Below are positions 2,648-53,092 of a stretch of DNA of 64,000 bases, in pieces; the first letter of the stretch is position 1; the number at the start of each line of letters is the position of its first letter. Source of the stretch: a virus (lineage: Duplodnaviria; Caudoviricetes); the IMG/VR virus record IMGVR_UViG_3300014205_000204, positions 1 through 64,000 of that record; one strand, given 5' to 3'. The translations under genes were made by a program, and so were the position numbers. The notes below the pieces were generated by a model. The model was not told where the DNA came from. It did no database searches and saw only the letters and a program-made list of their open reading frames with translations.

Positions 2648-3187
2648 TCACGTCGTTGCCTTGATCCCGCTGACGACGCACTTGTAGGTTTCTAACCATT
2701 CTGAATGCTCGACGTTATCCTTCACGCTGTCTTTTCCGGCCAGCGTCACGTTCCTGACCACTGACTTTTCCTCGACCGTGGAATTACCGCCGACACTTGA
2801 CCTGATGACGACTGACTTACCGGTGACGATGGCCAACCCGCCGATCGTCGACTTGTCGCACACGATGGCATGGCCACGCAACTTGGACCCATCCGTGGCG
2901 ACCGACTCATCGCACAGCGTTGCTTTCTTCGACAGAATGCATTTTCCTTTCGCGACCGAACCGCCGATGAGGAGTGCATCCTCCCTCACGCTCGATGATT
3001 CGATGGCCTTCGAGTCGTCGAATATCCATGACGTGCCGCCCTGGGACAGGTTATCTGGTCCTTCCACCAGTCCTCCCCTTTCCCCCTTCTTGACCGTCCT
3101 CTTGAGCCTGATGATCGTGAACTCTTCATCGGCCACGATCCTCTTGAGCCCCGTCTTGGCGTCGTCTTCCAAAGTGTATTTCGACAT
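2648..3187 (-). CDS. Left-handed beta-helix (hexapeptide-repeat, YdcK-like) protein
   Basis: KKGERGGLVEGPDNLSQGGTSWIFDDSK followed by hexapeptide-periodic V/I/L repeats. Confidence 0.75.
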   Translation of the reverse strand: MSKYTLEDDAKTGLKRIVADEEFTIIRLKRTVKKGERGGLVEGPDNLSQGGTSWIFDDSKAIESSSVREDALLIGGSVAKGKCILSKKATLCDESVATDGSKLRGHAIVCDKSTIGGLAIVTGKSVVIRSSVGGNSTVEEKSVVRNVTLAGKDSVKDNVEHSEWLETYKCVVSGIKATT

Positions 3188-3228
3188 AATGCAAAAAAGT
3201 TACATGGTGAGTGCTCACCCTCTTTGGA

Positions 3229-3257
3229 ATAGTAGACATTTTGTTTTTTTGCGTCAA
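3229..3257 (-). promoter_or_regulatory. Sigma70-type promoter TTGACG-17-TACTAT
   Basis: -35 at 3257-3252 and -10 at 3234-3229, upstream of the 3187 start. Confidence 0.65.
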
Positions 3258-3396
3258 GACTGTGGAGAAAGTGACTTTTGAAAAATATGCATATAATGAA
3301 CGCGTACGTGCGTGCTTGCGCGTTCTTTCTTCCCACGATTACCCGTGAAGTTATCAAGTGCTGTGATGGTTGGCTCACTGCGTTCGCCAAGACCTG

Positions 3397-3450
3397 ACGG
3401 CTAATGTCCACTTCGCTCCGCTAACGCTACGCTTCGTAGACATTAGCCGT
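3397..3450. other. Perfect 12-bp inverted repeat with CGCT-rich loop
   Basis: ACGGCTAATGTC (3397-3408) / GACATTAGCCGT (3439-3450). Confidence 0.85.
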
Positions 3451-3479
3451 GGTTAAAAGGGCATCATCGGTCTTTTCTT

Positions 3480-4008
3480 TTTACGGAAACCAATCCATTC
3501 TGACGTCAGCTAACTTAGCTGCTCAGATTTAATCTGTTCAGTCTAAGCCGTTATCCAATGCCTACTCTTTTTGAGCCGGTCATCAGATCCCATCTTCAGC
3601 GTTCCACCCAAGCCTTCAATGGCCCGAGCTTCCTCAACTCAAGTTCATGTGCCATAGGTAATTGGTTCCGTATTACAGAATCAAGCCTATGATCTATCCC
3701 AAGTGAGTGCTTCGTGGGGAGGTCGTGGGTACCCGTGGGAGTCTCGTGGGAGAGCTCGGGGACCCTTGAAAGGCCTCTCGCAAATCGTTTGTCAAATGAA
3801 CGACACACCCCTCAACAGGGCCACCCGATAGGCGGTATCGCAAGGCGAAAGTGTGGCTTAAACTGGCAATTTTTCTACGTTGGGTTACTGTCCAACGAAT
3901 ATGGTCTTGGCACTGGCATCGAGGTATTGTTCCCAGCGGCTTGTGCCCACCACTTCCCAAAGATAACTGGTCTTAGCTAAATACGCAAGAGAGTGACCTT
4001 TGGTCCTA
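3480..4008 (-). ncRNA. Candidate large ornate ncRNA (~450-530 nt)
   Basis: ~19-bp terminal helix (3981-3961 with 3556-3537) and ~20-bp internal helix (3776-3753 with 3630-3610), plus several nested hairpins. G-U pairs favour the minus strand. Extended -10 promoter directly upstream; no credible ORF. Confidence 0.65.
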
Positions 4009-4013
4009 ACCAA

Positions 4014-4022
4014 ATTATAGCA
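4014..4022 (-). promoter_or_regulatory. Extended -10 promoter (TGCTATAAT)
   Basis: Perfect TGnTATAAT facing the 3480-4008 non-coding region. Confidence 0.75.
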
Positions 4023-4073
4023 CACGGTTTCACGGAAACGACGGAAACTCGAGTTATGCACATGGGTTGGCTA

Positions 4074-4102
4074 TTGCGCGTTTTTCAGAGGGGGTGTAAG
4101 TT
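4074..4102 (+). promoter_or_regulatory. Possible sigma70-type promoter TTGCGC-17-TAAGTT
   Basis: Divergent from the 4014-4022 promoter. It would give groEL a ~315-nt leader. Confidence 0.4.
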
Positions 4103-4108
4103 TCACTC

Positions 4109-4390
4109 ACGAACACACTTTGACACACCACCCCCGGTGGGCGCGAAACGCCGCGCTGGCAGCCGGGGACCGCGAATGGCCATGGAAGCCGCGCGGATCG
4201 CGGGAGGCGCTCTCCAGGCGCACTGCCCGCGAGAACGCCGCTGGGTTGCAAACTAGCGGCGAAGCGACACCAGACAAGACATTTCCGATATCTGCTTTAA
4301 GCCAAAAAACCCCGGCCGGGTCTGAGTTTGGCTACGTTCAGTGTACCGTTAATTGGTACCCAATAGGCGCTGTGATTTTTCACTGCGCTC
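4109..4390 (+). promoter_or_regulatory. Structured 5' leader (or small ncRNA) upstream of groEL
   Basis: Helices 4132-4137/4163-4168, 4198-4204/4226-4232, 4237-4244/4253-4260, 4301-4306/4327-4332, 4343-4347/4355-4359 and 4367-4375/4380-4388. Confidence 0.5.
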
Positions 4391-4402
4391 TTTGAGTGCT
4401 AA
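4377..4402 (+). promoter_or_regulatory. CIRCE-like element (perfect right half-site GAGTGCTAA)
   Basis: TTTTCACTG-N8-GAGTGCTAA versus the CIRCE consensus TTAGCACTC-N9-GAGTGCTAA, 21 nt before the groEL ATG. Confidence 0.45.
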
Positions 4403-4423
4403 TAAAACATAAAAACATCCATC

Positions 4424-6016
4424 ATGCCTTCTCCCATGGAAACCCGCGTCCTCAGCGACCGCGGGCGCATCAGCCTCATAAACGGAGCCAAGCTTGCCGC
4501 CAGCGTCATCGGGTCCACCATGGGCCCGGCCGGCCGCTACGTGGCCATCGAGTACCGCGGGAACGTGCCGGAGATGACGAAGGACGGCGTCAGCGTCAGC
4601 AGCAAGATATTCCTTCACGACCCGGTCGAGGAGATGGGGAACGAGCTGGTCAAGATGGCCTGCCTCAAGACCCTCGCCAAGACTTCCGACGGGACCACGA
4701 CCACCGCGGTACTCGTGGGTGCCCTCGCCGAGACGCTTTCCGGGGCGATGGACGGCCGGCCGTCCGCCCAGGTGATCGAGGGGGCGAAGCAGGCGGTCAC
4801 GGACGTGCAGGCCAAGGTTCGAGAGGAGAGCGTCCCGTTCAGCCCGGATGACGCCCTCAAGGTGGCGGTGGTTTCCGCGAACTCGAGAGAGCTCGGCACC
4901 CTCGCCTACCAGGCGTTCGACGGTGACTATGACCTTGACGTCCAGGTCGAGCTGTCGAACAGGCCGACGACGGAAGTCTCGGTCTCCCGCGGCCTCCGCA
5001 TACCGGCAGGCTACCATAGCGACAGGTTCGTCAACATGCCCGACATTGGCGCGTGCATCCTCGAGGACGTCGCCGTCCTCGCCTCCGACAGCGTCATTGA
5101 GGACGTCGACAGCGTCACGCCAGCCGTTTCTGCGGTGGCTGTGGCGAGGAACGGCGGTTCCGGCGTCACGCTCCTCGTGGTCGCCGAGGGCTTCTCGGAG
5201 GCCGTGAGCGGCGCGCTTACGCGCTTCGCCTCGCAGGGCATACCGGTGCTGGCGGTCAAGGCCGTGGCCTCCGGGTCACGCTGTCATGAGATATGCGGCG
5301 ACATCGCCGCCTTGGGCGGGGGAGTCGCGTACGGCGACAAGAGCGGGCGCGACATGCGCGACTTCACCCTTGGCACTGCCCCCAGGTTCGGCAGGGTCTA
5401 CGCCAACCGCAACTTCTGCGACGTCATGGGAAGCGGGCACGCCGACAGCGAGGCGGTCAAGACCAGGCTGGCGGCCGCCCAGAAGTCACTTTCCGAGACG
5501 GAATCAGACTTCGAGAAAGCCCATTTCGGCCGGCGCGTCCGCGGCCTGAAGTTCCGGTTCGCCTACCTGTCAGTCGGTGGCGTGTCGGATGCCGAGAGGC
5601 ACGAGAACGGCCAGAGGATCGAGGATGCCGTGGGTGCCGTGAAGGCCGCGATGGTGGGCGGCACAGTGATCGGGTGCGGCCAGGCGCTTTACAACGCCGC
5701 AACCGAGCTCGGTGACCTCAGCGGGATGAATGATGACTTCGCGGCGGGTTATGAGGCCGTGCTGATGGCCTGCGACTCCCCCAGGAGGCAGATACTGCTG
5801 AACGCCGGCCTCTCGGAAGACGAGATCAACGCCCCGTCAGGGGTTGAGATAGACCCGATTACCATGATGCAGACGGATTTCAGGCTGAAAGGCATTCTTG
5901 ATCCGACTGAAGTGCCGTGCGTTGCGCTCGAGAACGCCGTTTCGGTGGCGATTCTGATCGCCAACACGCTGTTTTCGGTCTCTTACATGGACCGAGTGGG
6001 TCCATACGCGAAATAA
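4424..6016 (+). CDS. groEL: Group I chaperonin, GroEL-like
   Basis: TMGPAGRYVAI, TKDGVSV, SDGTTTTAVL and RIEDAVGA (D398 equivalent). 530 aa, without a GGM tail. Confidence 0.92.
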   Translation: MPSPMETRVLSDRGRISLINGAKLAASVIGSTMGPAGRYVAIEYRGNVPEMTKDGVSVSSKIFLHDPVEEMGNELVKMACLKTLAKTSDGTTTTAVLVGALAETLSGAMDGRPSAQVIEGAKQAVTDVQAKVREESVPFSPDDALKVAVVSANSRELGTLAYQAFDGDYDLDVQVELSNRPTTEVSVSRGLRIPAGYHSDRFVNMPDIGACILEDVAVLASDSVIEDVDSVTPAVSAVAVARNGGSGVTLLVVAEGFSEAVSGALTRFASQGIPVLAVKAVASGSRCHEICGDIAALGGGVAYGDKSGRDMRDFTLGTAPRFGRVYANRNFCDVMGSGHADSEAVKTRLAAAQKSLSETESDFEKAHFGRRVRGLKFRFAYLSVGGVSDAERHENGQRIEDAVGAVKAAMVGGTVIGCGQALYNAATELGDLSGMNDDFAAGYEAVLMACDSPRRQILLNAGLSEDEINAPSGVEIDPITMMQTDFRLKGILDPTEVPCVALENAVSVAILIANTLFSVSYMDRVGPYAK

Positions 6017-53043: not shown

Positions 53044-53092
53044 ATTATATCACATCTTTTCGCGGAAAATGACCTTTTTTTCATGGTATAAT
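53044..53092. promoter_or_regulatory. Divergent extended -10 promoters
   Basis: TGATATAAT on minus (53052-53044) and TGGTATAAT on plus (53084-53092). Confidence 0.75.

Follow-up and report, generated by a model that had tools for sequence, protein, structure and literature searches.

Positions 3480-4022 of the window, by which we mean the whole 64,000-nt stretch of DNA that was analysed, are real non-coding DNA behind a genuine phage promoter, and on the minus strand they probably represent a lineage-specific untranslated leader or RNA, not a new RNA class. An earlier reading of the same letters, made from sequence alone, had seen here an ornate RNA of 450-530 nt closed by a long terminal helix; a new ornate RNA class is not supported by the tests run here. 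Our preferred explanation, which we hold at somewhat less than even odds (about 0.45), is that transcription of the phage's leftward arm would begin here with an untranslated, promoter-proximal segment, and that this segment, a long leader or else an RNA 600-800 nt in length standing alone, would be co-regulated with the replication operon and furnished with ordinary local hairpins and a strong 3' or processing stem-loop. The enrichment of its promoter, the shared upstream element, the gene map, the lack of an ORF, the minus-strand folding, the stem-loop and an analogous arrangement in a sister phage all speak for this explanation; against it, an untranslated leader of 800 nt is unusual for a densely coded phage, and phased CCCACGR repeats together with low G+C suit a DNA-level element equally well. 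If the conservative reading is true, the result is an ordinary one: the control region of a phage would have an untranslated leader specific to its lineage. A functional large non-coding RNA would join the very few large phage RNAs known, as an orphan, and, being without relatives, could be studied by experiment only.

Genome setting and promoter

The source is an uncultured SU10-like phage of roughly 85-100 kb from landfill, groundwater and lagoon samples. Its IMG/VR virus record, classed as linear, is 84,484 bases long, with a completeness estimate of ~85%, and the window comprises positions 1-64000 of that record. At the left end of the contig (window 1-600) G+C reaches 76-78%, far higher than the ~59% elsewhere; a separate, longer contig of 98.7 kb encodes the same proteins. 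A 1236-nt gap at 3188-4423, which contains 3480-4022 on its minus strand, separates a leftward hexapeptide-repeat gene from a rightward phage GroEL and is the divergence point of the phage's two transcription arms. The structural module comprises the rightward genes between 4424 and ~47.4 kb, the first of which encodes the divergent GroEL-like chaperonin (4424-6016, plus strand); a terminase, an SU10/P22-type portal and a 2123-aa protein also belong to it. Between 64 and 47.4 kb the genes run leftward and serve replication and recombination (helicase, SbcCD, primase/helicase and UvsX), and small leftward genes occupy the region left of 4.4 kb. The hexapeptide-repeat (left-handed beta-helix) gene at 2648-3187 on the minus strand, which encodes 179 aa and belongs to phrog_5070, would lie downstream of the transcript considered below; a search of 5.8e9 proteins gave no close homologue of its product.

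The gap itself has no discernible coding capacity. TAA, TAG and TGA are all present in each of its six frames, so simple stop-codon recoding cannot open it, and ten ORFs in or beside it (44-141 aa) matched nothing in Pfam or PHROG and look like noise; on these grounds we rule out a hidden gene or recoded ORF, and no coding frame follows TGCTATAAT. A second non-coding gap, of 810 nt (1838-2647), has the hexapeptide-repeat gene on one side and a DUF7695 gene on the other; the folding z-score of its minus strand is -4.85, one of its plus-strand frames is broken by TGA alone (7 codons in 270), and an Rfam search of it returned no match.

The minus-strand motif of the sequence-only reading is present: TGCTATAAT, an extended -10 promoter, occupies 4022-4014, with transcription predicted to start near 4007. 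The core of this promoter, TGNTATAAT, occurs at five sites in 64 kb against 0.17 expected, a count reached in none of 100 shuffles. All five sites share TGNTATAATT, with T directly after TGNTATAAT, followed a few bases on by a TAG-containing motif, and the other four lie ~25-50 nt ahead of ATG starts. An operator-like element, TTTCCGTGAAA, occupies 4028-4038 on the minus strand; it stands 5 nt ahead of the TG in the extended -10, with its centre near -26. Its exact form, TTTCCGYGAAA, has just two occurrences in 64 kb, both followed after 5 nt by a leftward TGNTATAAT (4038-4014 and 53068-53044), and this exact 11-mer is absent from positions 64,001-84,000 of the record. The promoters at 4022-4014 and 53052-53044 accordingly have a common architecture, TTTCCGYGAAA-N5-TGNTATAAT, with identical spacing, and the latter heads a leftward operon that holds the primase/helicase and UvsX genes. 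At this second locus (window 53044-53092) two extended -10 promoters stand back to back and diverge, TGATATAAT on the minus and TGGTATAAT on the plus strand, with a near-palindrome, TTTCCGCGAAA, between them.

Two tandem copies of a further motif, GTTTCCGT, overlap the operator-like element (4032-4048, minus strand); the window has nine copies against 2.4 expected, and three of them fall within the gap at 3188-4423. The third, TTTCCGTAAAA, at 3479-3490 on the minus strand, differs from the operator-like element at one position. We considered a mobile element bounded by the resulting 12-nt direct repeat (4039-4028 and 3490-3479) and rejected it, a repeat of this kind being expected by chance on our own estimate. 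Ahead of the hexapeptide-repeat gene, TTGACG-17-TACTAT (3229-3257, minus strand) is a weak sigma-70-like promoter candidate, one having been found where 1.1 were expected. The minus strand has a canonical intrinsic terminator at 4307-4323, ~100 nt upstream of the GroEL start, where no evident minus-strand gene ends.

Because a promoter of this family with a shared upstream element is followed by no ORF, a minus-strand untranslated transcript starting near 4007 is likely. We infer from the shared spacing that the element near -26 may bind a regulator and so couple this transcript to the replication genes. As a by-product, the analysis yields a defined promoter class, with five TGNTATAAT sites, two of which carry the -26 element tying the transcript to the replication operon; this class would be the first regulatory map for this uncultured SU10-like phage.

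Predicted transcript: extent and folding

The predicted untranslated transcript would span at least 3392-4007 on the minus strand, a region with no ORF or family match, and may continue to the gene at 3187. As a stand-alone unit it has a well-supported promoter of its own, and the minus strand from 4007 to 3188 yielded no canonical intrinsic terminator, so that a leader and a stand-alone RNA are not distinguishable. A candidate terminator at 3322-3295 was rejected, its hairpin being weak (z +0.35); a Rho-loading (rut) role for a C-rich tract was likewise set aside as speculation, the C/G ratio of 1.78 over 78 nt being unexceptional. What the region does contain, outside the coordinates of the earlier reading, is a very stable minus-strand stem-loop at 3453-3392 (15 + 3 bp with one G-U; -34.6 kcal/mol; pair probability 0.99), whose z-score of -7.08 was equalled by none of 200 shuffles and which has no U-tract behind it.

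These features suggest how the locus might operate under the preferred reading. Located in a divergent control region between the leftward arm and the rightward structural arm, transcription would begin near 4007 and proceed leftwards, with a regulator of phage or host origin acting on the -26 element to control both this transcript and the replication genes. The resulting RNA of 600-800 nt would take ordinary local hairpins, not a conserved ornate architecture, and the stem-loop at 3453-3392 could serve as a 3' end or as a stability or processing element; alternatively, transcription could pause or be attenuated at it before reaching the hexapeptide-repeat gene at 3187. The sequence itself would be lineage-specific and fast-evolving.

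The ornate fold proposed earlier depended on two long helices, a terminal one pairing 3981-3961 with 3556-3537 and a second pairing 3776-3753 with 3630-3610. The complementarity exists in both cases (18 interrupted pairs, -17.8 kcal/mol, and 19 pairs, -27.3 kcal/mol, respectively), but neither helix rises above chance. In a windowed scan (28-nt windows, 60 dinucleotide-preserving shuffles) the best long-range duplex of the shuffles averaged -25.8 +/- 2.5 kcal/mol and reached -27.3 in 14 of the 60, while their second-best duplex was stronger than -17.8 kcal/mol in every one. In the Boltzmann ensemble of 4007-3380 the mean pair probability is 1e-7 for the terminal helix and 0.006 for the second, and forcing both costs 17.4 kcal/mol. 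The smaller hairpins of the earlier fold fared better: CGUUGG/CCAACG and CAUAGG/CCUAUG pair with a probability of ~0.95, and GGCAC/GUGCC is present with one of 0.49. The ensemble also predicts an alternative domain (3539-3865, minus strand) closed by an 11-bp helix, 3865-3855 with 3549-3539, at a pair probability of 0.99; by our own estimate ~4 helices of such a kind are expected by chance in 628 nt.

As a whole, 3480-4022 folds with z -3.61 on the minus strand versus -1.16 on the plus, in keeping with the strand chosen in the sequence-only reading. The minus-strand value beats that of shuffled sequence, but it is unexceptional for this genome: among 22 control segments, each of 543 nt and drawn from this window (mean z -1.1, sd 1.6, minimum -4.3), two lie at or below -3.6. 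Over 4007-3380 the z-score is -4.57, at the edge of the control range, with the stem-loop at 3453-3392 supplying much of the added stability. With its long helices at chance level and disfavoured, and with this z-score, the ornate RNA closed by a terminal helix is not supported.

Rfam 15, run over the whole window, had no match at gathering score, its large ornate RNAs, tmRNA, RNase P, 6S, SRP, introns and ribozymes included, which agrees with the earlier reading, where the stretch could not be matched to tmRNA, RNase P, SRP, 6S or group I/II introns. In E-value mode (E up to 10) positions 3000-4500 returned four weak, unrelated matches, the top one being the DUF805b RNA motif, which scored 18.2 bits where its gathering score is 35.6 (E 0.04 over just 1.5 kb). 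A single-stranded tail, AAAAAGAGUAGGCA, at 3573-3560 fits the conserved 3' tail of that motif, but the score is below threshold and the DUF805 gene context is absent here, and we treat the match as chance. ARAGORN found no tRNA or tmRNA in the window, and neither it nor the permissive Rfam scan gave any tRNA or tmRNA remnant in the stretch.

A true large structured RNA acting in trans, of ~550-700 nt, lineage-specific and with a defined tertiary fold, perhaps analogous to GOLLD or ROOL, has to be weighed at this point. Such an RNA would account for a real promoter without an ORF, for the z-scores of the 543-nt stretch (-3.6) and of 4007-3380 (-4.6), for the better folding of the minus strand and for several hairpins at P ~0.95, and the stable 3' stem-loop could define its end; the sequence is moreover 100% identical between landfill and groundwater assemblies. 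We nonetheless consider it quite improbable, given chance-level and disfavoured long helices, two of 22 controls that fold as well, the failure of Rfam, phage records, IMG/VR, JGI metagenomes and the sister phage to yield a match or homologue, and strain variants that strike the proposed terminal helix. Nor are tRNAs adjacent: those of the phage lie near 66.5 kb of the record, where four genes (Cys, His, Ser and Met) occupy 66489-66822 on the minus strand (L024:2489-2822), past the end of the window.

Relatives, strain variants and repeats

By blastn against phage records we found no DNA homologue of the stretch, and exact-word scans with pieces of the RNA gave no match in IMG/VR (25-mer) or in JGI metagenome contigs (20-mer). 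The homologue search that the sequence-only reading had called for thus returned only strains 99-100% identical, across phage records, IMG/VR, JGI metagenomes and the sister phage; by these searches the sequence is an orphan. With its long helices at chance level and no homologue found, the suggestion of a new class is supported by none of the tests and seems improbable.

A search of 5.8 billion proteins revealed one sister species (GroEL 63% and portal 70-72% identical); the GroEL search also gave an unrelated IMG/VR GroEL contig at 27% identity. This sister phage carries at the corresponding locus a non-coding gap of 1364 nt (L007:727-2090) and a different left-hand gene, and its gap shows no similarity to 3188-4423 by nhmmer, blastn, shared k-mers or tblastx. 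Both strands of the sister gap fold strongly (z -6.4 minus, -4.4 plus), and its single TGNTATAAT faces rightward, to GroEL. Its arrangement is analogous to ours, with one extended -10 promoter, ~1.1 kb of non-coding DNA and strong hairpins; the analogy is loose because the promoter points in the opposite direction. In addition, three tandem 11-nt repeats of TGTCAAGGGTC lie just upstream of the sister gap's sole TGGTATAAT promoter, and two perfect hairpins stand ahead of its GroEL gene. In more distant phages (portal ~45% identical) the gaps contain tRNA arrays or group I introns. One of them, L010 (portal 44% identical), carries two group I introns containing LAGLIDADG ORFs ahead of an SU10-type capsid gene (L010:19009-19677) and, upstream of its portal, an intein-containing 864-aa protein, the regions reported being L010:14909-16485 and L010:7212-9806.

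A bolder generalization would be that both phages of this lineage keep at the arm junction a promoter-driven, highly structured non-coding RNA of 0.6-1.1 kb, the two mutually unrelated in sequence, and that these are fast-evolving cassettes for large phage RNAs; the one here would come on at the same time as the replication genes and work in trans, in a role such as that of a decoy, scaffold or anti-defence RNA. We regard this as a rather doubtful extrapolation.

The sister phage's unrelated sequence and different left-hand gene would also fit a largely functionless spacer at a mosaic recombination junction, which carries a promoter by chance and whose hairpins are incidental. Strain comparison bears on this reading from both sides. 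The variant strain consists of lagoon contigs, ~99% identical and of low depth; between 3949 and 4261 it shows ~9 substitutions and two indels, and right of 4261 its sequence is wholly replaced, as might be expected of such a junction. Between strains there is only a single substitution across 2837-3592, however, and the variant retains both the promoter and the operator-like element intact. Despite the compactness of phage genomes, both species keep more than 1.2 kb of non-coding DNA here, and the stem-loop at 3453-3392 is far beyond chance; a mere spacer therefore seems to us improbable to much the same degree as a structured RNA acting in trans. Within the stretch the lagoon variants are, in the minus-strand sense, 3978 A>C, a U inserted at 3963/3962, 3870 A>U, 3868 U>C and 3542 A>G. 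The first two break the proposed terminal helix and are uncompensated, and A3542G turns a U-A into a U-G in the alternative helix, with the pair kept; since the lagoon contigs are of low depth, this variant evidence is weak.

The gap also bears features that could operate at the level of DNA. Four CCCACGR repeats at 3712-3750 (minus strand), spaced at 10-11 nt, form an iteron-like C-rich tract that is the window's only such cluster, and a fifth copy, CCCACGA, lies inverted ~380 nt away at 3332-3338 on the plus strand. G+C in the gap region is 0.455-0.515 versus ~0.59 overall, and the cumulative GC-skew minimum falls at 3188-4423. The four phased direct repeats thus adjoin an A+T-richer stretch, as at iteron-type origins, which have three or more; those here are short and imperfect. 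Scanning IMG/VR for a pattern of four phased copies gave 12 contigs, mostly with perfect 11-nt tandem arrays in non-coding DNA, so phased CCCACG arrays are, by this pattern, a recurring viral DNA repeat type. In L014, L015, L022 and L023 the 11-nt tandem unit is GCTATCCCACG, present in 4-7 copies in non-coding DNA, and other contigs with CCCACG arrays have differing 5-nt spacers around CCCACG.

These observations could reflect a transcription-activated replication origin or a regulator-binding array, in which the RNA would be incidental, an activator or a primer; the cluster with its phasing and inverted copy, the lowered G+C, the skew minimum, the control element that the promoter has in common with the replication operon and the tandem CCCACG iterons in the non-coding DNA of other viral contigs are all in keeping with it. 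We judge such an element unlikely all the same: the repeats went unscored by TRF, which found nothing else in the gap either, the skew minimum coincides too with the switch in gene orientation, and the strand asymmetry of folding favours a feature of RNA. The untranslated leader or RNA of the leftward arm, our preferred reading, is in keeping with that asymmetry.

Known systems compared

GOLLD and ROOL are large ornate RNAs associated with phages and prophages (PMC5737381, PMC12286853). The stretch is likewise large, non-coding and phage-borne, with many predicted hairpins; it differs in having no Rfam match (the four weak hits at E up to 10 being unrelated) and in not lying beside tRNAs, and because no homologues were found, no conserved architecture is demonstrable for it.

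Two further groups of systems invite comparison with a promoter-driven transcript at an arm junction. Transcripts that activate or prime an origin include ColE1 RNA II, and the T4 origins oriF and oriG combine a promoter with an unwinding element. Here too an untranslated transcript of ~550-600 nt is predicted behind a strong promoter, with probable replication co-regulation and with repeats and an A+T-richer stretch adjoining. By contrast with these origins, the RNA at our repeats is C-rich, not G-rich, so a persistent R-loop is not favoured; there is no sequence relation, and any origin role is putative.

Long untranslated leaders that carry processing or antitermination elements are also known from phage early operons, among them the T7 left-end leader with its RNase III site and the put RNAs of HK022. 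No sequence or model match links the stretch to these leaders, and the role of its stem-loop is putative; like them, it is untranslated, immediately follows the promoter that opens a long transcription arm and is accompanied by a long, near-perfect stem that would suit processing or stabilisation.
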